Positions 31,371 to 56,144 of a DNA stretch of 64,000 bases are shown piece by piece (positions within the stretch are counted from its first letter, which is position 1; each line of letters starts with the position of its first letter). The DNA is taken from contig JBCDAK010000001.1 of assembly GCA_039185545.1 (NCBI GenBank), positions 3,652 through 67,651 on the forward strand, read 5' to 3'. Under the pieces are notes generated by a model that was not told where the DNA came from, ran no database searches, and saw only the letters and a program-made list of their open reading frames with translations. The position numbers and the translations under genes were made by a program. The DNA is from Actinomycetota bacterium. Its GTDB lineage: Bacteria > Actinomycetota > Acidimicrobiia > Acidimicrobiales > Ilumatobacteraceae.

Positions 31371-33245
31371 ATGCCACGTCCATCCTCACCCTGGTCCCGA
31401 CGCGCGGCCGTGGCCATCGTTGCGGCGACCGCTGCGACCACGGTCGCGATCCCGGCGATCACGTCCGCCGAGGTCGAGACCGGGCGCCCCGACCGCGTGC
31501 TCGACACCCGTGAGGGTGTGGGCCACTCGGGCCGCATCGGTCCAGGCGACGTCGTACAGCTGTCACCGTCCGAGCTCGGCGTGTCGGCGGGATCGGCGGT
31601 CACGCTCAACCTCGTCGCGACCGGTGCCTCGACGCGCGGTTTCGCCTCGGCGTGGCCCTGCTCGGGCGACACCGACGACACCGCGATCCTCAACTACGAG
31701 CCCGGTGACGTCGTCTCGAACTTCGCGGTCCTCGGTGTCGACGCCGCAGGCCTGTGTCTGAGCTCCAGCACGGCTGTCCACCTGGTGGCCGACGTCAGTG
31801 GGTCTCTCGACGGCGGCGACGTCGACGCACGATCCCCGGTCCGCGTGGTCGACACGCGAGAGCGCGGTGGGCGCCTCTCGGGCGGAGATCTCCGACGGAT
31901 CGACCTCGGTGGCGCCGTCGACGTACCGGACGGAGTCGGTGGCGTCGCCGTGAACGTCGCCGTGACCCGCTCGTCGGCCGGTGGCTTCCTCAGCGTGATC
32001 GCGTGCGATGCCTCGCTTCCGCCGGCCACCTCGACGCTGAACTTCGGCGCCGGCGACGTGGTGTCGTCCTTCGCCATCGCCTCGATCGACGGCGACGATC
32101 TCTGCGTGTGGACGAATGTCGACGCCGACCTGGTCATCGACGTGTACGGCTGGATCCGGAACGCCAGCGATCTCGATGCCCAGACTCCGCAGCGACTCGT
32201 CGACACGCGCGTCGGCCGTGGCATCACGGGCGCGCTCCCGAGCGGTTCCGAGCAACGGGTGCGCGTCGCCGGGCTCGCGGGTGTGTCCAACCAGGCCGAG
32301 GCCGCGGTCGTCAACTTCACGCTGACGCGGACCACGAGCCGCGCCTTCCTCACCGCGTGGGACTGCAGCGGATCGCGGCCCACGTCGTCGGTCGTCAACG
32401 TCGGTGCGGGCGCGACCCGAGCGACCCAGGCCCTCCTCCGTCTGGCGAACTCCGGCGAACTCTGCCTGCGCGCCGTCAGCGACGACGGTCGTCCGGTCCA
32501 CGTGATCGCCGACGTCGTCGGAGCGGTGGCGGGGAACGTCGACCGTCCCGTTCCGCCCCCGCAACCTGAGCCGACCGGACGCTTCGAGACGCTGCCGCCC
32601 GGATCACCTCTCCCGTCGAGCGCCGACTGCGCCGCACGGGTACGTCCGGCCGCCGAGACGCGGCCCGGCAACGCCGTGTACAACCAGACGGCGGGCCGCG
32701 CCAACGGCGCGTTCGCCGACCACGAGCACGCCCTCTTCCGTCGGGTTGACGGCGCCTTCACCGGCACCACCGACGAGATCCTCCAGTGGACCGCGTGCAA
32801 ATGGGGCATCGACGAAGACGTCGTCCGGGCGCAGACCGCTCTCGAGTCGTGGTGGCACCAGACGACCGAGGGCGACGTCACGGGCGACCAGAGCGCCTGC
32901 CACCCCGTTCTGCGTGGTGGAAGCCAGTGTCCCGAGTCGATCGGCCTGCTGCAGGTGCGATTCCTCTACCACGGTGAGGCGTACGAGGACGAGAACGCGA
33001 TCCGGTCCAGTGCCTACAACGCCGACTACGCCTACGCCGTCTGGCGGACGTGCTTCGAGGGTGAGTTCACCTGGCTCAACACCGTCGAGCGAGGTGCCAC
33101 GTACTCGGCCGGCGATCTTCGCGGCTGCATGGGCGTCTGGTTCTCGGGTCGTTGGTACGTGCCCGACGCGTACGACTACCTCGGTCGGTTCGACGACTTC
33201 TTCGACGACCGGGTCTGGGAGCAGGACTACTTCCTGAACGGATGA
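31371..33245 (+). CDS. Secreted protein: three RxxDTR repeat domains + Pro linker + lysozyme/SLT-like domain
   Basis: Signal peptide (..IPAITSA); repeats at RVLDTR, RVVDTR and RLVDTR; C-terminal ACKWGIDEDVVRAQTALES...SIGLLQV...NADY resembles SLT motifs (ES, GLxQ). Confidence 0.75.
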   Translation: MPRPSSPWSRRAAVAIVAATAATTVAIPAITSAEVETGRPDRVLDTREGVGHSGRIGPGDVVQLSPSELGVSAGSAVTLNLVATGASTRGFASAWPCSGDTDDTAILNYEPGDVVSNFAVLGVDAAGLCLSSSTAVHLVADVSGSLDGGDVDARSPVRVVDTRERGGRLSGGDLRRIDLGGAVDVPDGVGGVAVNVAVTRSSAGGFLSVIACDASLPPATSTLNFGAGDVVSSFAIASIDGDDLCVWTNVDADLVIDVYGWIRNASDLDAQTPQRLVDTRVGRGITGALPSGSEQRVRVAGLAGVSNQAEAAVVNFTLTRTTSRAFLTAWDCSGSRPTSSVVNVGAGATRATQALLRLANSGELCLRAVSDDGRPVHVIADVVGAVAGNVDRPVPPPQPEPTGRFETLPPGSPLPSSADCAARVRPAAETRPGNAVYNQTAGRANGAFADHEHALFRRVDGAFTGTTDEILQWTACKWGIDEDVVRAQTALESWWHQTTEGDVTGDQSACHPVLRGGSQCPESIGLLQVRFLYHGEAYEDENAIRSSAYNADYAYAVWRTCFEGEFTWLNTVERGATYSAGDLRGCMGVWFSGRWYVPDAYDYLGRFDDFFDDRVWEQDYFLNG

Positions 33246-33272
33246 TCCGGAGGGGCGCTCATCGTGGTCGCC

Positions 33273-34448
33273 TCAGGAGGCGGTCACCATGATGTTGTCC
33301 CAGTGCCAGGTGTAGCTGCAGTTGCCGGGGGCCAGGCAGGCGTCGTCTTCCTTGTCCGGCGTGTAGTTGTGGTCCTTGAAGACGACCACGAACTCGTCGG
33401 GGAACGAGCCGGGCACGGTGTAGCTCTCGACGCCGGCGATGTCGACCACGATCTGCTCACCGTCGTCGATGATCGAGAAGGGCAGACGGGGCGGCTTCAG
33501 GCTGCACGGCTCGACCAACTCGGATCGCTCGCACAGCGAGTAGTGGGGTGAGACCTCCTGGTCGACGCCCTCGGTCGTGATGCGGATGTCGCCGCCGAAC
33601 GGGCCGTTGCCGACCACGATGGCGCCGTCAGGGTAGACCGGCAGGCCGTCGGCTGCGTCGAGCCAGTCGATACGCGAGCACTGCGGGCAGGTCGGGCGAT
33701 CGGTCGAGAAGTCGGCCGGGACGATGGCGACCTCCCACCACTGACGTCCACCGAGGTCGGTCACGTTGACGTCCCAGGACACGGTGTCGTGGGAGTCGAA
33801 GGTCGCGTCGGGCGAGAACCAGACGACGGAGTACGCATCGACGTCGCCCATCGTGGTCATCAGGTGGTTGCCGGCGACCGCTCCGGTGAGCGCCGACACG
33901 TCGCAGACGTAGAACGTGTTGTCGATCCGCTCCTGCTGGGTGTGTGCGGGATCGAACGAGACGGGACGGGTCTCCGTCGGCGGTCCGCACACGCCGTCGC
34001 CGAGATCGGAATGGTCGGCCAGCCACTCACCCCCTGCGTCGTTCGGCGCGTCGTGCACATCGACGTTGCGGTGGTAGACGCCGAGGCGGAAGTCGTCGAG
34101 TGACGCGGCGGTGTCGAACGTGGCGACGAAATCTCCGTCGGCGACGGTCGCCGGGGTGGGGTCGGGCATCGGCTCGGCGGCTGCGCCATCGGCGTCGTCG
34201 GAGGCGGGCTCGGAGTCGACGTCACCGACCGGGTCGACCGGTTCGTCGACCGCGACCGCGTCGGCGTCGGTCGACTCGACATCGGGATCGTCGGAACCGA
34301 GTCCGAGCACGGCGACGGCGGCGACGCCGGCCGCCGCACCGCCCGCGACCAGTGCGAGGGCCGCCAGACCGCGCCGACGCTTCGGCTCGGGCGGGGGAGG
34401 AGGCGGGAGCGGCGCAGGTGCGTCCGGAATCGTGTCCACCGAGGTCAC
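33273..34448 (-). CDS. Single-pass membrane protein with an acidic linker and an uncharacterised ~280-aa Trp/Cys-rich extracellular domain
   Basis: Poly-Pro, RRR, a TM helix and a D/E/P linker, then a domain paralogous to the C-terminus of 34567-36522. Confidence 0.75.
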   Translation of the reverse strand: MTSVDTIPDAPAPLPPPPPPEPKRRRGLAALALVAGGAAAGVAAVAVLGLGSDDPDVESTDADAVAVDEPVDPVGDVDSEPASDDADGAAAEPMPDPTPATVADGDFVATFDTAASLDDFRLGVYHRNVDVHDAPNDAGGEWLADHSDLGDGVCGPPTETRPVSFDPAHTQQERIDNTFYVCDVSALTGAVAGNHLMTTMGDVDAYSVVWFSPDATFDSHDTVSWDVNVTDLGGRQWWEVAIVPADFSTDRPTCPQCSRIDWLDAADGLPVYPDGAIVVGNGPFGGDIRITTEGVDQEVSPHYSLCERSELVEPCSLKPPRLPFSIIDDGEQIVVDIAGVESYTVPGSFPDEFVVVFKDHNYTPDKEDDACLAPGNCSYTWHWDNIMVTAS

Positions 34449-34566
34449 GGACGGATTCTACGGAATCCGCGCCGGCCCTCGAGTCGCACTTCCCGGTTCT
34501 CCGAGAGATCTTGACCCGTGTGCGCTCACCGTCGTGGCGCGACCACGCTGAGGCTCAGAATCGGGC

Positions 34567-36522
34567 TCAGCGGACGATGATGTTGTCCCAGTGCCAGGTG
34601 TACCCGACCGGGTCGCCGTCCTTGTTGGGCGTGTAGTTGTGGTCCTTCAGGATCACGTCGAACTGGTCGGGAAGCGAGCCGGGGACCCGGTAGGTCGCTG
34701 CATTGCCGTATTGGATCGTCAGGGAGCCGTCGCCGTTGTCGGTGATCGAGAACGTCCGGCGGATCGCCTTCGACTCGCACCCCTCCCGGTCGAGGTCGCA
34801 CATGTGGGTGTGGTCCTGGACCTTCATGTCGTTGCCGTCGACATGGATCCGGATGTCACCGCCGAACGGACCGTTGGCCACGACGACCGATCCGTTCGGG
34901 TAGGTCGGCAGGCCGGCGGTGTCGTTCATCCACGGAGCCGCGGCGCACTGTGGGCAGTCGGCGATGCCGGTGCTGAAGGTGTTCGGCACGACCATGACCT
35001 CCCACCACTGGCGGCCCTTGAGGTCGGTCACGTTGACGTCCCACGAGACCGTCCGGGCGTTCGAGAAGCTCCGCGTCGGTGCGAACCAGCCGGTCGAGTA
35101 GCCGGACGTGTCCCCGATGGAGGTCATCACGTGGTCGCGGCAGAGGTAACGCCAGCCGGTGGACGAGTTGCGGTTGATCGTCCGCTGGCTGTCGGGCGAA
35201 CCACAGTCGGTGTCGTGGTCGGCCGACCAGCTGGTCTGGTCGACGAGGTCGGTGTCACGGTGGTACACGCCCCAGTCGAAGTCGTCGAGACCGGTGTTGC
35301 CGTCGAACGTCGCGGCGAACTGCGTGCCCGACACATCGGGTCCGCCGCCCGAGTCGTCGCCGCCTCCGCCGCCCGAGCCGCCGCTGCCACCGCTGCCGCC
35401 GGCCGGGCGGGTGTCGAGGACGCGGGTCGGGGAGAAGGTGTCGACGCCCGACGAGTTGGGGATGACGCCGTTGAGGTCGACGATCAGGTGGACGGACGTG
35501 CTGGTCGACAGGCAGATCGTGCCGCCCTCGCCGAGTCCGAGGACCGTGGCGTTCGAGATCGGCTCACCGGCCGAGTAGTTGAGAATGGACGCGGTGGGCA
35601 TGTCCTGGCCGCACGGCCACGCCACGACGAAGCCGGAGCTCGACGCCTGGGCTGCCGCGATGTTGAGCACGACCGACGAGTTGTTGCCGATCCCGGCGGC
35701 ATCGGCGACGTCGAGCACATGTGTCTCGCCCGCACCGTTGGCCTGGCCCGACCGGGTGTCGAGCACTCGGAGCGGCACGTAGCCGTCGAGACCGGCCCCC
35801 GTGATGACGCCGTTCGCGTCGACCAGGAGATCGGTTCGACTCGATGCGTAGAGGCAGAGCGTCCCGTCGTCGGCGAGCGCCAGCTCGGCCGAGTTGGCGA
35901 TGTTCGAACCCGCCTCGTAGTTGAGGATGCTCGCCGTCGGGCGATCCTGATCGCAGGGCCACGCGATGATGTGGCCACGGTCGGCGGGACGGACGGCCGT
36001 GAGATTGAGCGTGGCGGTGCCGGCGCTGCCGGCGATCGGGCCCTCGCCCGCCACCTGCACCGAGATGGTCTCGCCGGCGCCGATCGGCCGGGAGTCGCGG
36101 GTGTCGAGGAGGCGGTACGGGTTGTTGCCGTCGAAGGAGCTTCCTTCGGGGAACACGCCGTTGACGTCGACGATGAGCTCGGCGTCGGACGAGCGGTAGA
36201 TGCACACGGCGCCGTCGTCGGACAGCTCGACGATGGTGGAGTTGGAGACGGCCGGGCCGGGCTCGTAGTTGAGGCTCGACGCCGTGGGCATGTCGTCGTC
36301 GCACGACCAGATGGTGACGAAGCCGACCTCGGTGGCCCGGGCGACGGCGACGTTGAGGACGGCTGCGTCGGCATCGCCGGGGACGCCGTTCACACCGGAG
36401 ATCTGGACCTCGATGGTGGAGTCGGCGCCGCTCGCGGTGCCACCGGTCTGAACCACAGCGAGCAGGCCCAGCGTCGCCGAGACGGCGGCGAGGCTGGCGA
36501 GCCCTGCGCGAACTGGTTTCAT
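34567..36522 (-). CDS. Secreted protein: three RxxDTR repeat domains (permuted) + Gly linker + the same uncharacterised Trp/Cys-rich domain
   Basis: ATG 36522 with a GGAGG RBS; signal peptide MKPVRAG...ASG; repeats LNVA..GFV.AWPC....PTASILNY; GGSGGSGGGGG linker. Confidence 0.8.
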   Translation of the reverse strand: MKPVRAGLASLAAVSATLGLLAVVQTGGTASGADSTIEVQISGVNGVPGDADAAVLNVAVARATEVGFVTIWSCDDDMPTASSLNYEPGPAVSNSTIVELSDDGAVCIYRSSDAELIVDVNGVFPEGSSFDGNNPYRLLDTRDSRPIGAGETISVQVAGEGPIAGSAGTATLNLTAVRPADRGHIIAWPCDQDRPTASILNYEAGSNIANSAELALADDGTLCLYASSRTDLLVDANGVITGAGLDGYVPLRVLDTRSGQANGAGETHVLDVADAAGIGNNSSVVLNIAAAQASSSGFVVAWPCGQDMPTASILNYSAGEPISNATVLGLGEGGTICLSTSTSVHLIVDLNGVIPNSSGVDTFSPTRVLDTRPAGGSGGSGGSGGGGGDDSGGGPDVSGTQFAATFDGNTGLDDFDWGVYHRDTDLVDQTSWSADHDTDCGSPDSQRTINRNSSTGWRYLCRDHVMTSIGDTSGYSTGWFAPTRSFSNARTVSWDVNVTDLKGRQWWEVMVVPNTFSTGIADCPQCAAAPWMNDTAGLPTYPNGSVVVANGPFGGDIRIHVDGNDMKVQDHTHMCDLDREGCESKAIRRTFSITDNGDGSLTIQYGNAATYRVPGSLPDQFDVILKDHNYTPNKDGDPVGYTWHWDNIIVR

Positions 36523-36600
36523 GGTCGTTGCTCCCTCCACGGCTGCGGCTGCATGGTCGGGTCGCAGTCCCGATTCGGCCGCCCATCCGCGTATCGGTCG

Positions 36601-36614
36601 GTGAGAGACGTCAC
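36601..36614. promoter_or_regulatory. GTGA-N6-TCAC site (CRP/GlxR-like core) in a divergent intergenic region
   Basis: GTGAgagacgTCAC, followed by GTGA-N7-TCAC (36615-36629) and GTGACG...CGTCAC (36636-36660). Confidence 0.4.
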
Positions 36615-36823: not shown

Positions 36824-37822
36824 ATGAGCGACGTCACGGTCGTCGTCCCGACGTACAACCGCGTCGATCGACTGCGCCGGGTGATCGACTCACTCGAAGC
36901 CCAGGCCGTCGGCCCGTCCGAGGTGTCGAACGACGTCTCGTTCGAGGTCGTGGTGGTGTCCGACGGGTCCACCGACGGCACCCACGACTACCTGCGCGAC
37001 ACCGAGTTCTCGGTCACGGTGCGGTGGTTCACCCAGGAGAACGCCGGACCCGCCCACGCGCGGAACCGAGGCATCGACGAGGCGCGCGGCGAACTCGTGC
37101 TGTTCGTCGACGACGACTTCGTGCCCGCTGACGATCTCGTCGCCACGCACGTGGCGGCGCACGAGCGACTCGGCGACCGCGTGGTCGTGATCGGTCCGAT
37201 GCTCGACCCACCCGATTTCGAGTTCAGCCCGTGGACCGCCTGGGAGCAGTCGATGCTGCGCAAGCAGTACGACGCGATGACCGAGGGTCTGTGGCCGGCG
37301 ACGGCGCGCCAGTTCTACACCGCCAACGCCTCGGTCCGCACCGAACACCTCCGCGCCGCCGGCGGGTTCGACCCGTCGTTCCACCGCATGGAGGACATCG
37401 AACTCGGCTACCGACTCGAGGAGCTCGGCCTCGAGTTCCACTTCGAGCCGGACGCCCGCGGCTTCCATTACGCCGCCCGCTCGTACGCGTCGTGGCTCGA
37501 CATCGCCGCTGCGTACGGCCGCAACGACATCGTGTTCGGCCGCCAACCCGGTCGGGACAACTGGCTCGACCTCGTGGTCGGCGGGTTCTGGCGGCGCAAC
37601 CCGGTCCTGCAGATCCTGCTGCACGGCACGGTGCGGTCGACGAAGCTGGCGAACGCACTCGCGGCGATCGTCGAGCGGACCGTCGAGCCGGCCGATCGTG
37701 TCTCGCGCCGCCTCTCGCGCGGTCTCCTCAGCTGCATGTACAACACCGCGTACTATCGCGGGATGGCTGCGGAACTCGGCGGGTCCCGTACGTTCTTCCG
37801 GGAGTCCTGGGCGCGGCGATGA
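36824..37822 (+). CDS. Glycosyltransferase family 2
   Basis: VVVPTYNR, VVSDGSTDGT, NAGPAHARNRG, FVDDD, GGFD, EDIELGYR. Confidence 0.92.
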   Translation: MSDVTVVVPTYNRVDRLRRVIDSLEAQAVGPSEVSNDVSFEVVVVSDGSTDGTHDYLRDTEFSVTVRWFTQENAGPAHARNRGIDEARGELVLFVDDDFVPADDLVATHVAAHERLGDRVVVIGPMLDPPDFEFSPWTAWEQSMLRKQYDAMTEGLWPATARQFYTANASVRTEHLRAAGGFDPSFHRMEDIELGYRLEELGLEFHFEPDARGFHYAARSYASWLDIAAAYGRNDIVFGRQPGRDNWLDLVVGGFWRRNPVLQILLHGTVRSTKLANALAAIVERTVEPADRVSRRLSRGLLSCMYNTAYYRGMAAELGGSRTFFRESWARR

Positions 37823-40173
37823 GCCGCTCGTACGAGTTCGCCTTCGTGGTCGAGCAGGTGCTCGGACACATCACGCACGGCGACAACCTCCGCCAGCACG
37901 TCGAACGCGGCGGCGTCCGGCCGCACTGGGTCCTGCCGGGGTACGACGTCGAGGGCGTCGCCGCCAAGATCCCGGTCTACAACTCGAACTGGACCGTCCG
38001 GTCCGGTGTCACCGCCCGCCGGGAACTGCGCGCCATCGACAAGGCGCAGCGTCTCGACGCCGTCTTCTTCCACACGCAGACCACCGCGATCATGGCCGCC
38101 GACTGGGTGCGCCGCCGTCCGAGTGTGGTGTCCGTCGACGCGACGCCGTCGCAGTACGACGAACTCGGGCCGTTCTACGAACACGACGTCGGACCCGCGG
38201 CCGTCGAGAAGGCCAAGGCGGCCGGGATGCGCGCCGTTCTCGACTCGGCCGACCACGTCGTGGCGTGGAGCCGCTGGGCGAAGGACAGCCTCGTCGCCGA
38301 CTACGGCGTCGCGTCGTCGAAGGTGAGCGTCGTGCCGCCCGGCGTGTCGGTCGACTCGTTCGCCGTCGACCGACCCGAGCCCGGCGACGGTCCGGTGAAG
38401 GTGCTGTTCGTCGGCGGTGACCTCGAGCGAAAGGGCGGGAACCTGCTCATCGAGGCGTGCCGTCGCCTCGGTCCGGCAGTCGAGCTGCACGTCGTGACCC
38501 GCGACGAGGCCGACCCCGGTCCGGGCCTCTTCGTGCACCGAGGGCTCACGCCCAACAGTCCCGAGCTCCTGGCGCTGTACCGGGACTGCGAGGTGTTCGC
38601 GCTGCCGACCTACGGCGACTGTCTCCCGATGGTGTTGTCCGAGGCCGGCGCCGCATCGATGGCCACCGTGTCCACCGAGGTCGCCGGGATCCCCGAGATC
38701 GTGGTCGACGGCGAGACGGGATCCGTGGTGCCGGTCGGCGACGTCGACGCACTCGAGGCCGCCCTCCGGCGCCTCGTCGACGACCCCGACGTGCGTTCTC
38801 GACTCGGCCGGGCAGCACATCGACACGTCTCCGCCCGGTACGACACCGCCGCGAACACCGACCGGCTCGTCGAGATCATGAAGGCCGTCGCCGACGGTCG
38901 CCGCATCGATGGCGACGCGGTCGACGGGACCGGGATCGACGAGACACCGTCGTCGGGGGTCGCGAGGCGACCGGGTGCACGCAGCTCGTCCCCCGAGTCT
39001 CCGACCGCCGATGCCGCCCGCCGTGACTCCGTCGAGCTGGAGCCCGCCTCCGTCGGTGTCGGCATCGTCGGCGGCGGTTTCGTGGCCGACTACTACGCCA
39101 GCACGATCCCGGGCCATCCCGAACTCCGCCTCGTCGGGGTCGCCGACGCGGTCGACGCCCATCGAGATCGCTACGCGGACCACCACGGAGTCCGCGCCTT
39201 CGCCTCGGTCGACGAGCTGCTCTCGTCCGACGACATCGACATCGTCGTCAACCTCACCAACCCGCGCAGTCACGTCGAGATCTCCGAGGCGGCGCTGCGC
39301 GCCGGCAAGCACGTCTACACCGAGAAGCCGCTGGCGCTCGACGTCGACGAGGCACGCCGGTTGGTCGAGTTGTCCGAGGAGCTCGGACTCGAGATCTCGT
39401 CGGCGCCGTGCAGCCTGCTCGGCGAGACGGCACAGACCATCTGGAAGGCGCTGCGGCGGGGGGTCGTCGGCGACGTCCGGCTCGTCTACGCCGAGATGGA
39501 CGAGGGTCTCGTGCACCGGATGCCCTTCTCGGGATGGGCGAGCGAGGCGGGTGCGCCGTGGCCGTACCGCGACGAGTTCGAGTTGGGGACCGTCATCGAG
39601 CACGCCGGGTACGTGGTCACGTGGCTCCCGGCCATGTTCGGCTCGGCCGTCTCCGTCAGCGGCATCGCCGACTGCCTCATCTCCGACAAGGCGGGAGTCG
39701 CGACCGACGGGACCGACTTCTCCATCGGCGTCATCAGGTTCGAGTCGGGCGTGGTCGCGCGCGTCACGTGCAGCCTCATCGCGTCGCACGACCACTCGCT
39801 GCGGATCTTCGGCGACGACGGCGAGCTGCGGACCGAGGACACCTGGTTCTACGGCTCCAAGGTGCAGCGTCGCCGATCGGTGAACCTCCTCAACCGGCGG
39901 CACCAGTGGCTGCCGTGGAGGACCGTCAAACACGTCGGTGTGCCCGCGGAGTACGACTACCGGGGCACCCAGCAGATGGACTTCGCCCGCGGCGTGTCCG
40001 ACCTCGCTCGGTCGATCGCCGCAGGAGTCCGGCCTCGGCTGTCCGGCCGCTACTGCCTGCACACGACCGAGATCGTGCTGGCGCTCGACCGGGCGTTGCG
40101 CACGACGACGCACTACGAGATGACCACCGAGGCGCCGCCGGTCGACCCGATGCCGTGGGCGCTCGACGCGTGA
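37819..40173 (+). CDS. Fusion: GT4 glycosyltransferase + Gfo/Idh/MocA oxidoreductase
   Basis: ATG 37819 overlaps the upstream TGA. GT4 (VLFVGGDLERKGG, FALPTYGDCLPMVLSEAG), a ~50-aa linker, then GIVGGG, VNLTNP, GKHVYTEKPLA. Confidence 0.85.
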   Translation: MSRSYEFAFVVEQVLGHITHGDNLRQHVERGGVRPHWVLPGYDVEGVAAKIPVYNSNWTVRSGVTARRELRAIDKAQRLDAVFFHTQTTAIMAADWVRRRPSVVSVDATPSQYDELGPFYEHDVGPAAVEKAKAAGMRAVLDSADHVVAWSRWAKDSLVADYGVASSKVSVVPPGVSVDSFAVDRPEPGDGPVKVLFVGGDLERKGGNLLIEACRRLGPAVELHVVTRDEADPGPGLFVHRGLTPNSPELLALYRDCEVFALPTYGDCLPMVLSEAGAASMATVSTEVAGIPEIVVDGETGSVVPVGDVDALEAALRRLVDDPDVRSRLGRAAHRHVSARYDTAANTDRLVEIMKAVADGRRIDGDAVDGTGIDETPSSGVARRPGARSSSPESPTADAARRDSVELEPASVGVGIVGGGFVADYYASTIPGHPELRLVGVADAVDAHRDRYADHHGVRAFASVDELLSSDDIDIVVNLTNPRSHVEISEAALRAGKHVYTEKPLALDVDEARRLVELSEELGLEISSAPCSLLGETAQTIWKALRRGVVGDVRLVYAEMDEGLVHRMPFSGWASEAGAPWPYRDEFELGTVIEHAGYVVTWLPAMFGSAVSVSGIADCLISDKAGVATDGTDFSIGVIRFESGVVARVTCSLIASHDHSLRIFGDDGELRTEDTWFYGSKVQRRRSVNLLNRRHQWLPWRTVKHVGVPAEYDYRGTQQMDFARGVSDLARSIAAGVRPRLSGRYCLHTTEIVLALDRALRTTTHYEMTTEAPPVDPMPWALDA

Positions 40174-40192
40174 CCGAGGCGAGGACGTCGGC

Positions 40193-41311: not shown

Positions 41312-41569
41312 CGGCCTCGTGCGGCGCGACCTCGACGGGGGCCACCGGACAGATCGTCACGAGATCGGCACGACGACCGCGGAGAGTCGTCGATACATTT
41401 CGCGGAGCACAGGGGCTCCCCGGACGGTGGGGTCGTGGCTCAAGACGACCTCGGATTCGTCCGACATCAACCGTGGTCGGCGCGTCCGGCGTCGCCGAGA
41501 CGCTCGCCGGTCCGGTCGAGGCGGGCAGACGCCCGAGTCGAGTGGGAACACGAGATCAGGAGACGAGTG

Positions 41570-41812
41570 ATGCGAAGCGATGTGGTCCGAGCGGTCGAGG
41601 AGGTCTGTGGGATCGGAGCAGCCGACCTCGTCGACGACGCCGATCTCGAGACCCTCGGGATCGACTCGCTCGACCTCATCGAGATCGGCATGATCCTCGA
41701 GGAGCAACACGGGATCGCGCTGGCCAGCGAGCAGTTCGAGTCCGTCACCACGTTCGGCGAGACCGTCGCGGTCATCGAACAGCAGAAGGCGGCGCAGGAC
41801 GCCGCGTCGTGA
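41570..41812 (+). CDS. Discrete acyl carrier protein
   Basis: ATG 41570 after an AGGAG RBS; acidic 80 aa with LGIDSLDLIEI. Confidence 0.9.
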   Translation: MRSDVVRAVEEVCGIGAADLVDDADLETLGIDSLDLIEIGMILEEQHGIALASEQFESVTTFGETVAVIEQQKAAQDAAS

Positions 41813-41827
41813 CGTCGGTGCCGTGAG

Positions 41828-43027: not shown

Positions 43028-43028
43028 C

Positions 43029-46000
43029 GTGAGCTCCCCTCTCACGACCCGGTCGGACCACACGACCGCCGAGACGACCCGTGGCGTCACCGCGACGCAG
43101 GAGTCGATGTGGTTCGACGCTCGCCACGATCCCGATTCGGTGCATCTGCACGTCTCGTTCGCGGTCCGGCTCGACGCTCCCGTCGAGCCGAGTCACGCGG
43201 ACACGGTCATCCGCCATGCGATCGACACGTTCGACGATCTGCGTTCGGTGTTCGTCGACGTCGACGGTCGACCGGAGCGACGAATCCTCCCCGCCGGCGA
43301 CGTCGCAGCATGGCGATGCGACGACATCTCGGCCGACGATCTCGACGACGCGCTGAGGCAGCTCCACTGCGCGCCGTTCGACGTCGAGAACGGTCCGCTC
43401 GTCCGCTTCCAGGGGTATCTCCTCCCCGACGACTCGATGGTGGTCGCGATCGTCGCGCACCACCTCGTCGTCGACCTGTGGACCGTGGGCCTGCTCGGGG
43501 CGTGGCTCGCACAGGCCTACGCGGCCGTTCGACGCAGCGAGCCCATGCCGCCGCTCCGACGGCTCGGTTCGTTCCACCGGCACGTCGAGATCGAGTCGAC
43601 GCGCCTGGGCGGATCCGATCGTGCGGCGGCGCTCGAACACTGGCGCCCACTCGTCGACCACTCCCGGCCCACCACGCTCGTCGACGACGGACTCGTCGTC
43701 GGACCGCGACCCGGACTCGGTGACGTCGTCCCCGTCCGCCTCGATCGCGAGGTCGAGATCGGAATCCGCGACCTCGCCGACCGGCTCGGCACCTCGATTC
43801 GCTCGGTCGTGCTCGCCGCCCTCGACACGGTGCTCCACCGCACACTCGGATCCGACCGCGTCACGGTCATCGAGTCGAAGGCCAATCGAACCGGAGCGAC
43901 GGCCCGCACGCTGGGCTGCTGTCTCAACCAGGTCCTCCGGGTGTCGGAGGCCGAGTCGTCGACCACGGTGGCGCAGCTGATCGGCGAGGTCGATCGACAG
44001 ACCCGCGCCTCCCGACCGCACGACTGGCTCCCGCTGTCGACCCTCATGCACGAGACCGGTCGCCCGACCGGGTCGGTGCCGGCGACCGAGGTCGCGTTCT
44101 CGTGGCAGAAGTCGGTGCGTCTCGTCGATCCGTCGCTCGCCCGCTCGCTCGCGCTGGGTGATCGCTCGCTCGATCGCGATCGTGAGTCGGTCGCCGCGGC
44201 GTCGATGCCGGTGCGCTCGTCGCCGGCTGCGGTGACTCTCATCGGAGCGGGCGACGGCGGTTCCGTCACACTCGCCCTCGAGTACCAGGTGGAGCGCTTC
44301 GCCCGTTCGTCGATCGAACTCCTCGGCGAGCGCCTCGCTCGGGTGCTCCGAGCATCGATCATCGATCCCGACGTACCCGTCGATGATGTCGATCTGATCG
44401 GCTCCGATCAGCGAGAGCGGCAGCGCAGCGAGTTCGGGACCCTCGATTCCACGACCGCGACGTCCACCGTGTCCGATCTCGTCGATGAACGGATGGCTGC
44501 GTCGCCCGACTCGGTCGCCATCCGACATCGCGGGCGTCGGGTCACCTACGCCGAGCTCGGCCGTCGGACCGACCGGATCGCCGAGGTCCTCGCAGCGGTC
44601 GACGGAGACGATCCGATCGGGGTCCTCACCAGCCGGTCCGTCGACATGGTCGCTGCGGTGCTCGCCGTGTGGCGCTCCGGTCGGGGATTCGTCCCGCTCG
44701 ACCCGAGCTACCCCGCGGCGCGTCTCGGCGACATGATCGGCGACGCCGGAGTCAGCTGCGTCGTGGTCGATGCCACCACCGTCGGTGCGGCCGAGCTCGT
44801 CGACGTCCTCGAGCGTCCGAGCCTGACGGTCGTCGACCTCGACGACGTCCCCGACGATCCACCGACAGCGACCGATGCCCTCGACCGGACGGAGCGGGCG
44901 GTGCGTCCGGCGTCGTCGGCACGTCCCGACGGTCTCGCTCACGTCTACTTCACGTCGGGCTCGACCGGTCGCCCGAAGGGTGTCGCCGTCACCCAGGCGA
45001 GCCTCGCCGGATTCCTCCGTTCGATGTGCGAACGGATCGAACTCGACGAGAACGACGTCGTCGCCGCGTCGACGACGCTCTCGTTCGACCCGGCGCTCCT
45101 CGAGCTCGTCGGCACGCTCGTGGTCGGGGGTGAGGTGCTGTTGATCGATCGCGACACCGTCGTCGACCCCGTCCTCTTCGGGCGCGCGCTCGGCGAAGCG
45201 ACCCTGGTGCAGGCGACGCCGACCGTGTACCGCATGCTGATCGAGAACGGCTGGACCGGTCACGATCGACTCGCGATCCTCTGCGGCGGCGAACCGATGA
45301 CACCGCAACTCGCCGCCGACCTGTCGGTTCGGGGAGCGTCGGTCTGGAATCTCTACGGGCCGACCGAGACCACGGTGTGGGCGACCGCCGATCGCGTCGA
45401 GCCCGGACACCGTCGGATCGGGCTCGGTCGACCGCTGCCCGGCGTGTGTCTCCACGTGCTCGACGAGCACTCGCGACCGGTCCCCGACGGCACCATCGGG
45501 GAGCTGTGGATCGGCGGCGACGGCGTCGCGATCGGATATGTCGGCCGGCCCGACCTCACCGCCGAACGCTTCGTCGACGATCCGTTCGTCGGGCGGCAGC
45601 GTCCGATGTACCGCACCGGCGATCTCGTCCGGCACGGACCGGGCGGCGTCCTCGAATTCCACGGCCGCACCGACTCGCAGGTCAAGGTCCGCGGTCACCG
45701 GATCGAGCTGGGCGAGATCGAAGCGGTGCTCGAGTCCCACCGGGCGGTGGTCGAGAGCGTGGCGACCGTGGTCGGTGACGGCGCCGACGCACGGCTCGTC
45801 GCGTTCGTGCGGGGCGAGACCGACCTCGACGCGACCGATCTCCGTCACTTCGCGTCGCGACGTCTTCCCCGGTCGATGCTGCCCGGTTCGATCGCGGTCG
45901 TCGAACGCTTCGCCCGCACGCCGAGCGGGAAGATCGACCGCCGACGTCTGCCGCAGGTCCACCTCGACGTCTCGGCCCCGGAATCGGCATCGGAGTCGGC

Positions 46001-48773
46001 GTCGACGGGCGCGGTCGACCTCGCCGATCCGACGCTGCTCGACGCGACGCTCGCGATCTACCGCGAGGTGCTCGATGCGCCGGAACTCGACGCGGACGCC
46101 GACTTCTTCGATTCCGGAGGTCACTCGCTCGACGCGACGCGCATCATCTCCCGACTCGAGTCCGCGACCGGGCGACGCCTCCCGATCCGCGCCGTGTTCG
46201 ATCACCCGTCTCCGCGCACCCTGGCCGTCGAGGTCGAGCGGACGCCCTCGGCGACGGTCTCCCGCCCCGATCACGGCCCGGCCGATGCGCCCGACCCGTC
46301 GTCGAGCGACGACCACACGACCTCGGGATCACTGACTCCGTCGCAGCGCAGGATGTGGTTCGCCCAGGCCGTCGACCCGTCGTCGACCACCTACAACCTC
46401 GCTGCACAGATCCGCGTGCGAGGTGGGCTGGAACTCGACGAGGTGCGCGCAGCCCTCGCTGCGGTGGTCGCCGATCAGCCGGCTCTGCGGTCGGCGTTCT
46501 CGGTCGACGACGGTGACATCGTCTCGACGGTGCACCCCGACGTGGTCCCCAGGATCGACGTCGTCGACCGTCGCTCCGTCGACGGAGTCGAGGCGCGCAT
46601 CGCCGCCGCGAGGTCGCGGATCGTCGAGCTCGCGCGGGCGCCGTTCGATCTGTCTCGTCCGCCGCTCGTGCGGTTCACCTGCGACGTGATCGACGCCGAC
46701 GACCTCGTGTTCGGCGTCGTGATCCATCACATCATCGCCGACCAGTGGTCGTTCGGGGTCCTGCTCGACGCCGTCGGCGTCGCCGTCGCGCAGCAGCGGG
46801 GTTCGCAGCCGGACAGTGAGAGCGGTGCTGGCGCCGACGGCGAGGTGGCCGACGTCTTCGTGTCGCCGTGGATCGAACGGGTCGAACCTGACGAGATCGA
46901 ACGGCAGATGGAGTACTGGCGTGGCCGGCTCGGCGGACTGTCGTCGCTCGAACTGCCCCTCGCTGCGACATCGCACCGCGAACGTCCGGCGTCCGCGGCA
47001 TCCGACGCGGGCGACGGCGTGCTGCTCGTCTCGCTCGACGACGGACTGCGGTCCGGAATCGACGCCTACGCGGCCGCACGCGGTGCGACCGGGTTCATGG
47101 TCTATGCGTCGACCCTGGCGTTGCTCCTGTCGGAGGTGGCCGGCTCCGACGACATCCCGATCGGGATGCCCATCGCGAACCGGCACCATCTCGACACCGA
47201 ACGGACGATCACCTCGTTGGTGAACACGCTGGTTCTGCGGATCGACACCTCCGGCCGAGTCGAGTTCGACGAGTTGCTGGCGCACGTGCGCGACTGTTCG
47301 CTCGAGGCCTACGACCATCAGGACGTCCCGTTCGACCGCATCGTGGGCGAACTCTCACCCCCGCGGGCCGGAGTGCGATCGCCGTTCTTCCAGGTGTTCC
47401 TCAACGTCCACAACGCCCCCATCGCGCTGCCGAGTCTGAGCGGCGCTCACTTCGACATCCTCCCGGTCGAGCACCGGGCCGTCGACTTCGACCTCTCGCT
47501 CACCATCGATCCCGAACTCACCGGCGTCCTGCGCGTCGAGTTCGACCCCCGACAGGTCACCGGCGACAGCGCGGCCGCCTGGTCGTCACGGTTCATCGAG
47601 ATGCTCCATCGGGTGGTGTCACCCGTCGGGCCGCCAACGATCGCCGAACTGCGTTCGACCGGTGCTGCGCCGATGGTCGCAGCGGGCGAGCTGATCGAAG
47701 TCGACGACCCCGCGGCCGAGGCGGGAACCTCGGTTCCCGCCGGCGGCCCGACCGAGGCTCGCTCCGACCGCGATGAGCGCCGTCGCGAGCTCGAGGGGAC
47801 GCTGGCCCGGATCTGGACCGACGTGCTCGACGTCGACCACGTCGAACTCGACGACGACTTCTTCGACCTCGGCGGCCACTCCCTGCTCGCTGTGCGCATG
47901 TTCGGTGAGATCCACGAGTCGACCGGCCGCCGACCGCCGATCGGGTTGCTGTTCCGCGCCCCCACGATCGCCGGTCTCGCCGCCCTCCTCGACCACGAGG
48001 GCTGGGCGTCGGAGTGGACCTCCATGGTGCGCGTGTCCGACGGCGATGCGACCGGTGTCCCCCTCTTCGTCATCACGCCGTACCTGATCTCGGCACTGAG
48101 CTTCCACGGTTTGGCGCAGGAGCTCGACGGGCGAGTCGTGTACGCCCTCGAGCCGCACGCCGTGGCGGCCGAGTCCGACGGTCGCGCATCGATCTCGCAG
48201 GTGGCCGCCCGCTACGTGAGCGAGATGAAGACGGTGCAGCCGGTCGGTCCGTACGACGTCGTCGGACACTGCGCCGGTGCCTGGGAGGCGCTCGAGGTGG
48301 TCGGCCGTCTCGAGGACCAGGGTGACGAGATCGGGTCGCTGACGGTCGTCGACATCGCTCCACCGGGCGTCGAGCCGCCGCGGCCGTCGCCGATCCGGTA
48401 CGTGCTCAGCCGGCTCCGGCTCTACACCCGGTCGGGTGCGAGCCGGTTGCTCCACGCGGCATGGTGGCGCACCCGAATGCTGCTGCTCGGATGGAGCGCA
48501 CGAGCGGGGTCCGGCGACGACGACACCTCACGTCGCGCCGCCGTCCGGGACGCACACCGGAGATACCGGGGTCGCCAGGTCCGAGCCGACATCCACCTGA
48601 TCCGCAGCGAGGAATGGAGTGGTCTGCCCGACAAGGACTGGCACCTCCGCTGGGCCGATCGGTCGTCGGGATCGCTCACGGTCGACACGGTTCCCGGCTC
48701 GCACGCGCGCCTCCTGCAGGCCGAGTCGCTCGACGACTTCGCCGAGGCGCTCCGGCGACACCTCGACGTCTGA
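43029..48773 (+). CDS. NRPS C-A-PCP-C-PCP-TE (second module lacks A; TE has a Cys nucleophile)
   Basis: C1 HHLVVD; A FTSGSTGRPKG, NLYGPTETT, YRTGD, GRTDSQVKVRGHRIE, SGKIDR; PCP GGHSL x2; C2 HHIIAD; TE GHCAG and GSH. Confidence 0.93.
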   Translation: MSSPLTTRSDHTTAETTRGVTATQESMWFDARHDPDSVHLHVSFAVRLDAPVEPSHADTVIRHAIDTFDDLRSVFVDVDGRPERRILPAGDVAAWRCDDISADDLDDALRQLHCAPFDVENGPLVRFQGYLLPDDSMVVAIVAHHLVVDLWTVGLLGAWLAQAYAAVRRSEPMPPLRRLGSFHRHVEIESTRLGGSDRAAALEHWRPLVDHSRPTTLVDDGLVVGPRPGLGDVVPVRLDREVEIGIRDLADRLGTSIRSVVLAALDTVLHRTLGSDRVTVIESKANRTGATARTLGCCLNQVLRVSEAESSTTVAQLIGEVDRQTRASRPHDWLPLSTLMHETGRPTGSVPATEVAFSWQKSVRLVDPSLARSLALGDRSLDRDRESVAAASMPVRSSPAAVTLIGAGDGGSVTLALEYQVERFARSSIELLGERLARVLRASIIDPDVPVDDVDLIGSDQRERQRSEFGTLDSTTATSTVSDLVDERMAASPDSVAIRHRGRRVTYAELGRRTDRIAEVLAAVDGDDPIGVLTSRSVDMVAAVLAVWRSGRGFVPLDPSYPAARLGDMIGDAGVSCVVVDATTVGAAELVDVLERPSLTVVDLDDVPDDPPTATDALDRTERAVRPASSARPDGLAHVYFTSGSTGRPKGVAVTQASLAGFLRSMCERIELDENDVVAASTTLSFDPALLELVGTLVVGGEVLLIDRDTVVDPVLFGRALGEATLVQATPTVYRMLIENGWTGHDRLAILCGGEPMTPQLAADLSVRGASVWNLYGPTETTVWATADRVEPGHRRIGLGRPLPGVCLHVLDEHSRPVPDGTIGELWIGGDGVAIGYVGRPDLTAERFVDDPFVGRQRPMYRTGDLVRHGPGGVLEFHGRTDSQVKVRGHRIELGEIEAVLESHRAVVESVATVVGDGADARLVAFVRGETDLDATDLRHFASRRLPRSMLPGSIAVVERFARTPSGKIDRRRLPQVHLDVSAPESASESASTGAVDLADPTLLDATLAIYREVLDAPELDADADFFDSGGHSLDATRIISRLESATGRRLPIRAVFDHPSPRTLAVEVERTPSATVSRPDHGPADAPDPSSSDDHTTSGSLTPSQRRMWFAQAVDPSSTTYNLAAQIRVRGGLELDEVRAALAAVVADQPALRSAFSVDDGDIVSTVHPDVVPRIDVVDRRSVDGVEARIAAARSRIVELARAPFDLSRPPLVRFTCDVIDADDLVFGVVIHHIIADQWSFGVLLDAVGVAVAQQRGSQPDSESGAGADGEVADVFVSPWIERVEPDEIERQMEYWRGRLGGLSSLELPLAATSHRERPASAASDAGDGVLLVSLDDGLRSGIDAYAAARGATGFMVYASTLALLLSEVAGSDDIPIGMPIANRHHLDTERTITSLVNTLVLRIDTSGRVEFDELLAHVRDCSLEAYDHQDVPFDRIVGELSPPRAGVRSPFFQVFLNVHNAPIALPSLSGAHFDILPVEHRAVDFDLSLTIDPELTGVLRVEFDPRQVTGDSAAAWSSRFIEMLHRVVSPVGPPTIAELRSTGAAPMVAAGELIEVDDPAAEAGTSVPAGGPTEARSDRDERRRELEGTLARIWTDVLDVDHVELDDDFFDLGGHSLLAVRMFGEIHESTGRRPPIGLLFRAPTIAGLAALLDHEGWASEWTSMVRVSDGDATGVPLFVITPYLISALSFHGLAQELDGRVVYALEPHAVAAESDGRASISQVAARYVSEMKTVQPVGPYDVVGHCAGAWEALEVVGRLEDQGDEIGSLTVVDIAPPGVEPPRPSPIRYVLSRLRLYTRSGASRLLHAAWWRTRMLLLGWSARAGSGDDDTSRRAAVRDAHRRYRGRQVRADIHLIRSEEWSGLPDKDWHLRWADRSSGSLTVDTVPGSHARLLQAESLDDFAEALRRHLDV

Positions 48774-48792
48774 CCGGTCGCGACGACCGGTC
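48772..48792. terminator. 9-bp GC hairpin between convergent genes
   Basis: gaccggtcg-cga-cgaccggtc, with no U-tract. Confidence 0.4.
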
Positions 48793-48799
48793 CGACGGC

Positions 48800-49762
48800 T
48801 CAGCCGATCAGGAGGAAGTGGAACGACGAGTCCTCGGACACGATCGCGTCCGTACCCGTGTCTTCCTCGCCGAAACACCCCACCGGGATGGTGAGGCTGC
48901 CGCCCGTCACCGTGAGCGCAGCGGCGCCGAGCACGCAGGAGCGTCCGGCGTCACCCATGTCGGGGGTCGCGTCCTCGATCGCGGTCAGGAGCACTCGCGG
49001 CTCGAACCCGTCGGGCAGTCCCGAGACCGTCACCTCGTACTCGCCGTCGTCGTCGACGCCGACGGCCACGGCCGAGGAGATCCCCGTCGGGGCGGTGGAG
49101 GAGATGGACGGCGCCGACCCGGTGTCGTCGGTGACGACACCGCTCACGAAGACGCCGTCGCCGGCGACGGCCGACTGGGGGACGTAGTCGGTCTGGGCGT
49201 CGGTCACCGACAGGTACTCGGTCTCGGCATCGGTGATCCGGAGGTACACGTCGTCGTGGTCGTGCGGGCCGTAGAAACCGACGACGTCGATGATCACGTT
49301 GACCGATCCGACGTTGTTGAACACGTCGAACGTTCCCGTGTCGGAGAGAGGCGTGTTGACGCCGTTCGGCGTGGGTGGCTGACCCGGCGCCGGGTTGAGA
49401 CTCGAAGTGCCCGGATTGGCTCCACCGTCCCAGATGGTCAGGAACGTCTGCTCGGTGGCGCCCAGTGCGGTCACGTTGAGCGCGAGAGCGGTGGCCTCGG
49501 TGGGAATCGTGCACTCACCGTTGGTGCCGTGGGCGGTGAAGGTGACCGTTTCGCCGGCGCCGAGTGGACCGCTCTGGGGACCGACGTTGCTCGCCGGGCG
49601 CGTGTCGACCAGACGACACTGCTCGACGGTCGTGAACACCGATCCGGTCTCGGGATCGTCGGCGGAGACGAGCTGGATCGACGTCGCAGCGAACACTCCG
49701 CCGCCGATGACGGCGGCGGCGAGGACCGTGATGAAGGCGACGGGACGCGTTGAGAGCTTCAC
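48800..49762 (-). CDS. Secreted protein with one RxxDTR domain and an uncharacterised C-terminal region
   Basis: C-terminal part of the 865-aa track ORF, starting at GTG 49762. Signal peptide, CRLVDTR, ALNVTA...FLTIW...PGTSSLN...N...PL, VIIDVVG. Confidence 0.75.
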   Translation of the reverse strand: MKLSTRPVAFITVLAAAVIGGGVFAATSIQLVSADDPETGSVFTTVEQCRLVDTRPASNVGPQSGPLGAGETVTFTAHGTNGECTIPTEATALALNVTALGATEQTFLTIWDGGANPGTSSLNPAPGQPPTPNGVNTPLSDTGTFDVFNNVGSVNVIIDVVGFYGPHDHDDVYLRITDAETEYLSVTDAQTDYVPQSAVAGDGVFVSGVVTDDTGSAPSISSTAPTGISSAVAVGVDDDGEYEVTVSGLPDGFEPRVLLTAIEDATPDMGDAGRSCVLGAAALTVTGGSLTIPVGCFGEEDTGTDAIVSEDSSFHFLLIG

Positions 49763-56118: not shown

Positions 56119-56144
56119 CGTCGTGCCTCGTCTCGTGAGCGGGG

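Follow-up and report, generated by a model that had tools for sequence, protein, structure and literature searches.

A repeated domain in three exported proteins

We analyzed a stretch of 64,000 nucleotides (nt) from contig JBCDAK010000001.1 of an actinobacterium of the Ilumatobacteraceae, which is called the window in the following. Three of its genes, named A, B and C here, encode proteins with a repeated domain of about 115-125 amino acids (aa). The domain belongs to a family that is very large, has no name and is strictly organized in threes, with two circular phases. The window has a G+C content of about 70%, and reading frames were picked by their third-position G+C content (GC3). In the six-frame translation the motif R[LV][LV]DTR was found seven times, compared to a mean of 0.205 and a maximum of 2 matches in 200 shuffles. 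Three matches are located on the + strand (nt 31494, 31842 and 32193) and four on the - strand (nt 36114, 35769, 35424 and 49615), all of them confined to the open reading frames (ORFs) of A (3), B (3) and C (1). The seven units could be aligned over their full length with MAFFT, showing pairwise identities of 27-49%. A hidden Markov model (HMM) built from them detected no eighth copy in the six-frame translation of the window, where all other matches had E-values above 1. The repeat, its seven copies and their positions had been described in an initial annotation of this DNA, with which regular expression, alignment and HMM agree; the consensus given there was reproduced by the MAFFT alignment. 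The genes and domains are listed below (i-E, independent E-value of the HMM match).

31371-33245, + strand: gene A, 624 aa (ORF and translation, GC3 frame)
31476-31823, + strand: repeat 1 of A, aa 36-151, starts with PDRVLDTR (i-E 3.9e-46; strands E35-45 to E136-146 in the structural model)
31824-32174, + strand: repeat 2 of A, aa 152-268, starts with PVRVVDTR (i-E 6.8e-48)
32175-32546, + strand: repeat 3 of A, aa 269-392, starts with PQRLVDTR (i-E 2.8e-42)
32616-33242, + strand: C-terminal domain of A, aa ~416-624, divergent, probably lysozyme-like (weak profile matches, E492, DSSP)
33273-34448, - strand: gene D, 391 aa
34567-36522, - strand: gene B, 651 aa from ATG 36522 (the mechanical ORF reaches GTG 36660)
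34570-35322, - strand: domain X of B, aa ~401-651, common to D (alignment A5)
35407-35751, - strand: repeat 3 of B, aa 258-372, ends with an extra PTRVLDTR strand (i-E 9.6e-53)
35752-36096, - strand: repeat 2 of B, aa 143-257, ends with PLRVLDTR (i-E 4.7e-53)
36097-36441, - strand: repeat 1 of B, aa 28-142, body without leading strand, ends with PYRLLDTR (i-E 1.8e-49)
48800-49762, - strand: gene C, 320 aa from GTG 49762
49247-49630, - strand: repeat of C, aa 45-172, starts with CRLVDTR (i-E 7.8e-38)

Protein A consists of a signal peptide (SRRAAV and a hydrophobic stretch), three repeats in the leading phase, with the PxRxxDTR strand in front of each body, a Pro-rich linker and a C-terminal, probably lysozyme-like domain. 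Its third repeat has no trailing RxxDTR; the linker PVPPPQPEP comes next. Protein B is composed of a Sec signal peptide, three repeats in the trailing phase, a Gly-rich linker and the C-terminal domain X. Body 1 begins straight after the signal peptide without a PxRxxDTR strand, its HMM match starting at model position 13, and an extra RVLDTR follows body 3, exactly as had been noted before. A database protein with 98% identity to B (P0241) has 649 aa, and an orthologue (P0245) is present in Ilumatobacter coccineus. Protein C carries an N-terminal transmembrane or signal anchor, one repeat and an acidic C-terminal region of about 150 aa without a named family. The passenger is thus a different one in each protein, namely a lysozyme-like domain in A, the His/Asp-rich domain X in B and the C-terminal region in C, and no LPXTG-type sorting signal was found in A, B, C or D; both observations had been made in the initial annotation for A, B and C.

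The true start of C is most likely GTG 49762, since a Pfam-supported WD40 gene (49860-51983) occupies the other strand, and the 865-aa ORF at 48800-51397 would be an artefact of the high G+C content. This WD40 beta-propeller gene (707 aa, + strand) is divergent from C, with about 100 bp between the two starts. High-G+C artefact ORFs of up to 1138 aa lie opposite real genes at several places of the window, like 28202-30163 (-), 37753-41169 (-), 42927-46316 (-), 48800-51397 (-) and others.

Size and conservation of the repeat family

The repeat showed no match to any Pfam-A or NCBIfam model, even at E ≤ 1, and comparison of its profile with the PDB sequences resulted in chance matches only. A profile of full-length A likewise hit nothing among the PDB sequences on the repeats, but gave weak matches of goose lysozyme and EmtA to the C-terminal domain. 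For the search of relatives, the seven-unit profile was scored against 1.84 billion cluster representatives (50% identity clusters). This revealed 35,580 matches at E ≤ 1e-3, 25,389 at E ≤ 1e-10 and 11,703 at E ≤ 1e-30. No Pfam family covers the repeat in 59 sampled representatives. Carriers in RefSeq are named after their other domains or as hypothetical, and the cluster members of ten representatives are called ‘hypothetical protein’, plus one RCC1 label. In the literature no description of the module was found, although coverage was incomplete; only one general review was relevant (PMC5817068), and its catalogue of wall-binding domains of monoderm bacteria contains nothing resembling the module.

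The named sources are mainly Acidimicrobiia (Ilumatobacteraceae, Acidimicrobiales). Among the Actinomycetes, the repeat was found in Terrabacter, Knoellia, Pedococcus, Kitasatospora, Streptomyces, Amycolatopsis, Actinokineospora, Arthrobacter and Curtobacterium, and a few metagenome-assembled genomes with carriers are labelled as Chloroflexi, Acidobacteriota, Blastocatellia or Eisenbacteria. A locus search with the family consensus sequence identified several repeat loci in single genomes.

From 717 repeats the consensus P.RllDTR...Gr.gvP..a.av.lNvT......Gf.Tv.Pcg...P.aSnlN...G.t.aN......G.vc......l.vDv.G was derived. The strongest conservation is shown by D103 (100%), N69 (98%), P63 (98%), N41 (95%), S66 (94%), N78 (93%), R9 (92%) and R4 (91%). 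The cysteines Cys58 and Cys91, which belong to the WPC and G.VC motifs, are both present in 551 repeats and both absent in 159, while one only was found in 7. This co-occurrence points to a disulfide and therefore to an extracytoplasmic domain. The repeat of C does not contain the usual Cys pair but has another one (EQC...GEC), and the two motif arginines are its only basic residues. In the triplet of B, 6 of the 13 basic residues are motif arginines.

Arrays of three and their two phases

For the analysis of copy number, bodies were located by an HMM excluding the strand, and arrays were counted in 386 proteins. 337 of the 377 arrays are triplets and 7 are sextets. The position of the PxRxxDTR strand was then recorded for 239 triplets of non-orthologous proteins, using a relaxed strand motif. 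It is only leading in 193 triplets, only trailing in 40, present at both ends in 1 and at neither end in 5. Each body has a single strand, and the array can start in either of two circular phases, as would be expected of an array whose ends meet. The circular permutation that the initial annotation had seen in B turned out to be part of this family-wide rule (193 versus 40) and fits a closed three-domain unit. In A the array is N-terminal and in the leading phase, and body 3 is followed by a linker free of the motif; the missing fourth strand is therefore not a mere truncation. Arrays of the leading phase end within 12 residues of the protein end in 124 of 176 cases, and many arrays of the trailing phase either come right behind the signal peptide, like that of B, or are internal, like those of SpoIID proteins.

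Repeats of one protein share 58% identity on average, and repeats of different proteins 41%, regardless of which positions are compared. A specialization of the triplet positions was rejected, as no diagonal identity signal was detected between proteins; the three units thus appear equivalent, as in a homotrimer. Judged by these sequences, triplets are homogenized or have been re-created repeatedly. Single repeats are found in C and in relatives of B such as P0246 and P0252. Short matches of the first search (≤ 224 aa) were considered as single-domain proteins, but this was rejected, as they are fragments of longer proteins with about 1.7 repeats.

Predicted structure of the triplet

The AlphaFold2 model of aa 20-380 of B, based on 69 sequences, reached a predicted local distance difference test score (pLDDT) of 92.0 and a predicted template modelling score (pTM) of 0.89. 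For A, about 100 full-length orthologues with 38-51% identity are available; 60 of them were used for the model, with a mean pLDDT of 90.8 and a pTM of 0.74. According to DSSP, the repeat region is all beta in both models, with 7-8 strands per unit. Only 4-5 residues separate the last strand of a body from the PxRxxDTR strand; both are long, which implies a hairpin. The trailing strand of B (E342-351) lies in two 10-residue blocks with pLDDT values of 90 and 94, despite the disordered Gly linker that comes after it. Modelling of the triplet had been suggested in the initial annotation, and the triplet is indeed predicted as one rigid unit. We are fairly confident that the jelly-roll units form a single rigid body of three with its ends meeting.

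Foldseek comparison with the PDB gave the triple jelly roll of Sulfolobus turreted icosahedral virus (STIV; 4ind) as the top match for the models of A and B. The second match for A was the single-chain adiponectin trimer 4dou, with a template modelling score (TM) of 0.37 on the target. Further matches were tandems of carbohydrate-binding module (CBM) family 22, CBM-like domains of Vip3/Cry, the STIV double jelly roll and XepA. Foldseek probabilities were 0.9-1.0 for jelly-roll proteins (4dou, 4ind, 2bbd and a phage C1q-domain protein). For the CBM22 tandem 4xup the probability was 0.85-0.96 at a TM of only about 0.2, and CBM51- and CBM32-containing enzymes were also listed; no CBM profile matched A, B or C at E ≤ 1. 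Among predicted viral structures, a phage ‘C1q domain-containing protein’ and three giant-virus proteins were found with query-based TM values (TMq) of 0.41-0.45, which exceeds the value of about 0.33 that is the maximum from one of three equal domains. The profiles of C1q (PF00386) and TNF (PF00229) gave no match to A, B or C at E ≤ 1.

Passengers of the triplet

The C-terminal domain of A matches SLT_3 with E = 4e-4 and 21.2 bits, which is under the Pfam cut-off of 27 bits. In the 60 orthologues, weak matches were obtained to Glucosaminidase (7), SLT_3 (4), SLT (2) and XkdW (1); Glucosaminidase, SLT_3 and SLT are presumably all families of the lysozyme-like clan. The family profile of A weakly matches goose lysozyme and EmtA around their ES motif (E about 0.3; goose lysozyme 0.27), which we take to be the site of the catalytic Glu, and E492, invariant in the A orthologues, is aligned with this motif. 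By DSSP of the AlphaFold2 model the domain is all alpha. The weak lysozyme-like matches, the alignment of E492 and the all-alpha domain make A very probably a wall glycan-strand hydrolase or lytic transglycosylase, a prediction that stays below the Pfam thresholds. About 25 orthologues of A (P0123, P0128, P0130 and others) were named ‘autotransporter family porin’ by the Joint Genome Institute (JGI). This label looks wrong, as the model consists of three beta sandwiches and an alpha-helical lysozyme-like domain and has no beta-barrel. The A orthologue at the related locus L002, described below, shows faint WD40-type Pfam matches, which are probably spurious.

Domain X of B has about 250 aa and matched neither a Pfam family nor a PDB sequence. 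It contains invariant H, D, R, W and C residues, among them H17 R18, D31 H32 D33, H60, D223 H224 and H240 (numbering of alignment A5), and this large number of invariant residues suggests a metal-dependent enzyme. Relatives of domain X adjoin the same glycan locus in L002 and L003, which makes it a candidate polymer-processing enzyme of this locus. The neighboring gene D encodes a protein with a Pro-rich N-terminus, one transmembrane anchor (GLAALALVAGGAAAGVAAVAVLGL), an acidic linker and domain X, and does not contain the repeat. Domain X of B and D share 46% identity, as seen via the L002 orthologue. In D, the transmembrane anchor and the acidic linker occupy the place of the triplet and the Gly linker of B. 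From its domain layout, D appears as the natural counterpart of B, with a membrane anchor where B has the triplet.

Within the family, the triplet is joined to more than 30 unrelated passengers, in an N-terminal, internal or C-terminal position, with peptidoglycan hydrolases, proteases and glycosidases among them. Partners are SpoIID with PG_binding_1, SpoIID with GDSL lipase, M23, NlpC/P60, glucosaminidase and lysozyme-like domains. Others are CAP, trypsin, subtilase, GH18, GH43, DUF4185 and 5'-nucleotidase, and further partners include RCC1 and PD40 propellers, a beta-helix, and fn3/PKD/TIG and cadherin-like stalk domains. Carriers have signal peptides or membrane anchors, and an LPXTG signal was found in 0 of 250. 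A carrier with a cutinase is encoded on a Curtobacterium plasmid. An Rhs protein of 1499 aa is located on the conjugative plasmid pB of Paenarthrobacter ureafaciens (NZ_CP094491.1; L005 5542-10041); it has a signal peptide, the triplet at aa ~76-447 and then RHS repeats, and a 65-aa ORF follows its gene. This is the layout of a wall-associated polymorphic toxin, and the small ORF is a possible immunity gene.

The surrounding glycan locus

By its gene content, the window encodes a pathway of the Wzx/Wzy type. The location of A, B and C inside a glycan locus, as stated in the initial annotation, is borne out by Pfam scans, which show glycosyltransferases, WecG/TagA, Wzz, Wzy and a flippase. The genes are the following (GT, glycosyltransferase family).

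548-2140: Bac_transf initiating transferase
13770-14906: GT4
19111-20382: GT2
20390-21496: WecG/TagA
21639-22691: Wzz
22691-23758: P-loop kinase-like protein (weak match)
23933-25561: Wzy
25596-26675: GT4
26668-28398, - strand: unk576, an unnamed 576-aa protein with only a chance-level GH30 C-terminal match
28418-30166: flippase
30181-31245: GT1
36824-37822: GT2
37819-40173, + strand: GT4-GFO/IDH/MocA fusion, 784 aa
40193-41311: stand-alone GFO/IDH/MocA

No LCP ligase or pyruvyl transferase was detected by Pfam among the scanned ORFs of the window. Synteny links the repeat genes to this locus beyond the window. L002 is a contig of 1.2 Mb from a related organism. Here, orthologues of B (52% identity), A (41%, 608 aa) and C come immediately after the block GT2-WecG-Wzz-kinase-Wzy-GT4-unk576, that of C with 42% identity over 311 aa and located beside the other two. 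In L003, the same block carries an orthologue of B and a small protein with domain X. The pair of unk576 and GT4 (25596-26675) shows 50-53% identity in L002 and L003.

Polyketide synthase (PKS) and nonribosomal peptide synthetase (NRPS) genes are interleaved with the glycan genes at 2464-13649 (-) and 41567-48773 (+). The set comprises a KS-AT-KR-DH-ACP-TE protein (2122 aa), a formyltransferase-adenylation-luciferase-like monooxygenase-carrier protein (1606 aa), a free ACP, a free ketosynthase and a C-A-T-C-T-TE NRPS (1914 aa). These genes suggest an acylated or peptide-decorated glycan, or a glycolipid. After the glycan genes, at 52110-56148 (-), 58498-59526 (-) and 63071-63949 (+), genes for the synthesis and recycling of 3'-phosphoadenosine-5'-phosphosulfate (PAPS), namely a CysN/APS-kinase fusion, CysD and a CysQ-like phosphatase, adjoin two sulfotransferase-family genes, an Rrf2 regulator and a CitMHS/TrkA_C transporter. 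The product of the region is probably sulfated.

Outside such loci the picture is a different one. The initial annotation had tied the repeats to glycan loci of this kind, but the family spreads far beyond them, with several loci per genome and 35,580 clusters. Of four other sampled carriers, the only one with glycan genes in its neighborhood is a DUF5005/DUF4185 protein (L088 8001-10196, contig_10 of ERZ25039533), which lies in a cluster with AftD-like GT-C transferases, GT4s, PMT_2 and UbiA. D-arabinan hydrolases are presumably among the DUF4185 proteins, and the cluster would be one for an arabinan-type envelope glycan in a relative of the Acidimicrobiia.

Possible function of the triplet

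We read the triplet as a single-chain, strand-exchanged, pseudo-threefold jelly-roll body that would act as a putative targeting or retention module and would most likely bind a glycan of the envelope; for this reading as a whole the chances seem about even to us. Each unit of about 115 residues would be an eight-stranded beta jelly roll or CBM-like sandwich, mostly with one disulfide, and three units would pack into a rigid pseudo-threefold body, a ‘single-chain trimer’ like the C1q/TNF heads or the viral triple jelly rolls. The P-x-R-x-x-D-T-R strand would pair as a hairpin with the final strand of the unit before it and lead into the next unit, so that the N- and C-termini of the array would meet and the array could be opened at either phase, with the strand first in A and last in B. 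The body would be non-catalytic, a lectin-like module retaining its passenger, joined by a flexible Pro- or Gly-rich linker, at the cell envelope via an envelope glycan. Binding may proceed via the nearly invariant polar residues of each unit (two Arg, Asp, Thr, three Asn, Ser and Asp), with up to three equivalent binding sites per triplet. At the locus described here, A, B and C would be placed next to the Wzx/Wzy-made polymer, which is probably sulfated and acylated. B would be a His/Asp-rich putative enzyme with D as its membrane-anchored twin, and C, as a small membrane protein, would need to form homotrimers. Closure of the ring in three dimensions, binding of a ligand and the nature of this ligand are what we infer here. 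Within this locus, the strongest hint at a positioning role of the triplet comes from B and D, in which the triplet is swapped for a membrane anchor. A general envelope ligand is plausible, whereas it is unlikely that the entire family recognizes a ligand specific to the polymer of this locus, since the family spreads beyond such glycan loci.

In a more far-reaching version, Acidimicrobiia and many Actinomycetes would rely on the triple jelly roll as their main non-covalent wall anchor, which would have been overlooked so far and would do the work of SLH and CWB2 with an unrelated fold. The triple jelly roll would bind a conserved feature of glycopolymer or peptidoglycan via the invariant Arg, Asp and Asn residues, the strand-exchanged ring would explain the threes and the two phases, and the single repeat of C would homotrimerize. 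We regard this version as a tentative possibility.

Several observations weigh against an envelope-binding module. Triplets are acidic, with a median pI of 5.1 and 71% of them below 6. Known wall-polymer anchors are generally basic, and the idea that the module is basic like these was rejected. The invariant polar residues could be purely structural, for the interface or a metal site. C is already anchored in the membrane, and some carriers also have PG_binding_1, so that the triplet is not their sole candidate wall-binding part. A tblastn search with the triplet of B against 50,697 phage genomes of INPHARED gave no match; the triplet therefore does not appear there as a wall-binding domain of endolysins. 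Foldseek identities are 6-13% and the TM of the whole triplet of B to PDB entries does not exceed 0.31, which means that no solved structure shares the overall body. Strand exchange and ring closure were deduced from DSSP, pTM and the permutation census and not from coordinates. Regarding the link to the glycan locus, two closer relatives of A (46% and 42% identity) are located between genes for FBP aldolase and DUF1015/RecN/CTP synthase, a housekeeping context, and 3 of the 4 other sampled carriers lie in neighborhoods without glycan genes.

The triplet might instead be a CBM or lectin for foreign material, directed at environmental polysaccharides or the surfaces of other cells and not at the own wall. 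Its structural neighbors, which include the CBM22 tandem, CBM51, the EngBF CBM, Bacteroides SGBP-B and phage tail-fibre or receptor-binding proteins, would fit this, as would partners like GH18, GH43, cutinase, lipases and the Rhs toxin, whose N-terminal part could bind the target cell, and the acidic pI is in line with calcium-dependent CBMs. We nevertheless consider such a role unlikely. The same invariant residues are present on enzymes acting on the own wall (SpoIID, M23, NlpC/P60 and the lysozyme-like A) and also on propellers and proteases without a polysaccharide substrate; B, A and C are syntenic with a locus for self-glycan biosynthesis in two genomes, and the exchange of triplet and membrane anchor between B and D points in the same direction. 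Still somewhat less likely is a scaffold without any ligand, that is a rigid, protease-resistant spacer or oligomerization platform comparable to fn3/PKD stalks, in which the invariant residues serve folding or the interface. The conserved motif does lie on the strand linking neighboring units, all three units are interchangeable, fn3, PKD, TIG and cadherin-like stalk domains are found together with the module, and nothing points to any particular ligand. Simple spacers, however, vary in copy number, whereas here the number is fixed to three or six; conservation exceeds 90% at about ten polar positions of the 717 repeats, with an overall identity of only about 41%, which is more than stalks usually keep; and a soluble secreted protein like A or B gains nothing from a spacer without an attachment point.

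It was also considered that the triplet recognizes the very polymer of this locus, as SLH does with the pyruvylated secondary cell wall polymer (SCWP) in a CsaB-dependent manner, with A, B and C as dedicated proteins. The three genes lie inside the locus, with contiguous orthologues in L002 and that of B in L003, and the locus has a transferase of the WecG/TagA type, which is typical of wall-linked polymers. The PAPS genes and the two sulfotransferases would give an anionic product for the motif arginines. Against this stand the 35,580 clusters and the several loci per genome, as Acidimicrobiia and Actinomycetes cannot all share one locus, and the invariant residues are identical in the carriers from unrelated neighborhoods, including the closer relatives of A and three of the four other carriers. 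The apparent lack of an LCP ligase and a pyruvyl transferase among the scanned ORFs also speaks against it, and of all readings weighed here this one appears the least probable to us.

Comparison with known systems

SLH and CWB2 domains mostly occur in three adjacent copies and form pseudo-trimers that bind wall polysaccharides, with a conserved Arg (PMC5817068). Neither SLH (PF00395) nor CWB2 (PF04122) matched A, B or C at E ≤ 1, and neither was found in 59 representative carriers or in 60 orthologues of A. Membership of the module in one of these families is excluded by the lack of a profile match and by its different fold class (all beta). By analogy, CWB2 and SLH would nevertheless be its closest functional counterparts. 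The initial annotation had proposed an anchor analogous to these two; the triple organization, the exported and diverse passengers and the synteny in L002 and L003 favor this view, while the all-beta fold, the acidic character and the missing SLH and CWB2 matches do not.

CWB2 (cell wall binding repeat 2), which binds the wall polysaccharide PSII and is known from the Cwp proteins of Clostridioides difficile and CwlB of Bacillus subtilis, resembles the module in the length of its units (~90-115 aa), in occurring almost always as three adjacent copies in one pseudo-trimeric body, in being attached to either terminus of many different secreted proteins (amidases, proteases, adhesins) and in its conserved Arg. 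Attachment is non-covalent instead of via LPXTG, which for the module is putative. The CWB2 fold is alpha/beta, whereas the module is all beta, acidic and without sequence relationship, and the rule of strand exchange and circular permutation is not described for CWB2. WapA of B. subtilis is a toxin of the Rhs type with N-terminal wall-binding repeats, and the Paenarthrobacter Rhs protein with its N-terminal triplet has the same layout. In SLH, three tandem copies likewise make up one pseudo-threefold unit, which anchors diverse exoproteins to the secondary wall polymer, and a short Arg motif occurs once per copy (TRAE in SLH, DTR in the module). SLH is an alpha-helical three-pronged spindle of ~55-aa units, in contrast to the ~115-aa beta jelly roll of the module, and there is no HMM match.

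Structurally, the models place C1q/TNF-type and viral multiple jelly rolls closest to the module, without sequence membership. C1q/TNF trimers (4dou) and the STIV turret protein (4ind) share with it the predicted beta jelly-roll protomer and, putatively, the compact three-lobed body, and the single-repeat forms (C and the B relatives of the P0246 type) could assemble as true homotrimers like those of C1q/TNF. TM values of the whole body to solved structures are, however, at most 0.37, and the packing is not demonstrably alike; the trimer of the module is, unlike C1q/TNF, normally one chain with an exchanged strand. A further likeness exists to the velcro closure of beta-propellers, closed repeat proteins that are opened at different phases with the closing strand at the N- or C-terminal end (in the module 193 and 40, with both in 1). 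Propeller blades are four-stranded, have ~40-50 aa and form rings of 4-10, whereas the module would be a ring of three whole jelly rolls.

The family is larger than the initial annotation had supposed, and by analogy with the known anchors an envelope anchor is a plausible and reasonable hypothesis. Whatever its function, ‘three bodies, three strands, two phases’ shows neatly how a closed repeat protein can be circularly permuted in nature. Should the module serve as an envelope anchor, it would be a third, structurally unrelated anchor in which three repeats make up one polymer-binding body, and thus a case of convergence. Tens of thousands of proteins that are now hypothetical or mislabelled would then also receive a name and a model, and the module could be used as a tag for surface display or targeting in Streptomyces and relatives. 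Acidimicrobiia and many Actinomycetes are abundant in soil and sea, and their surface biology is little characterized. An anchor of this type would explain how a large share of their exoproteins is retained at the cell surface.

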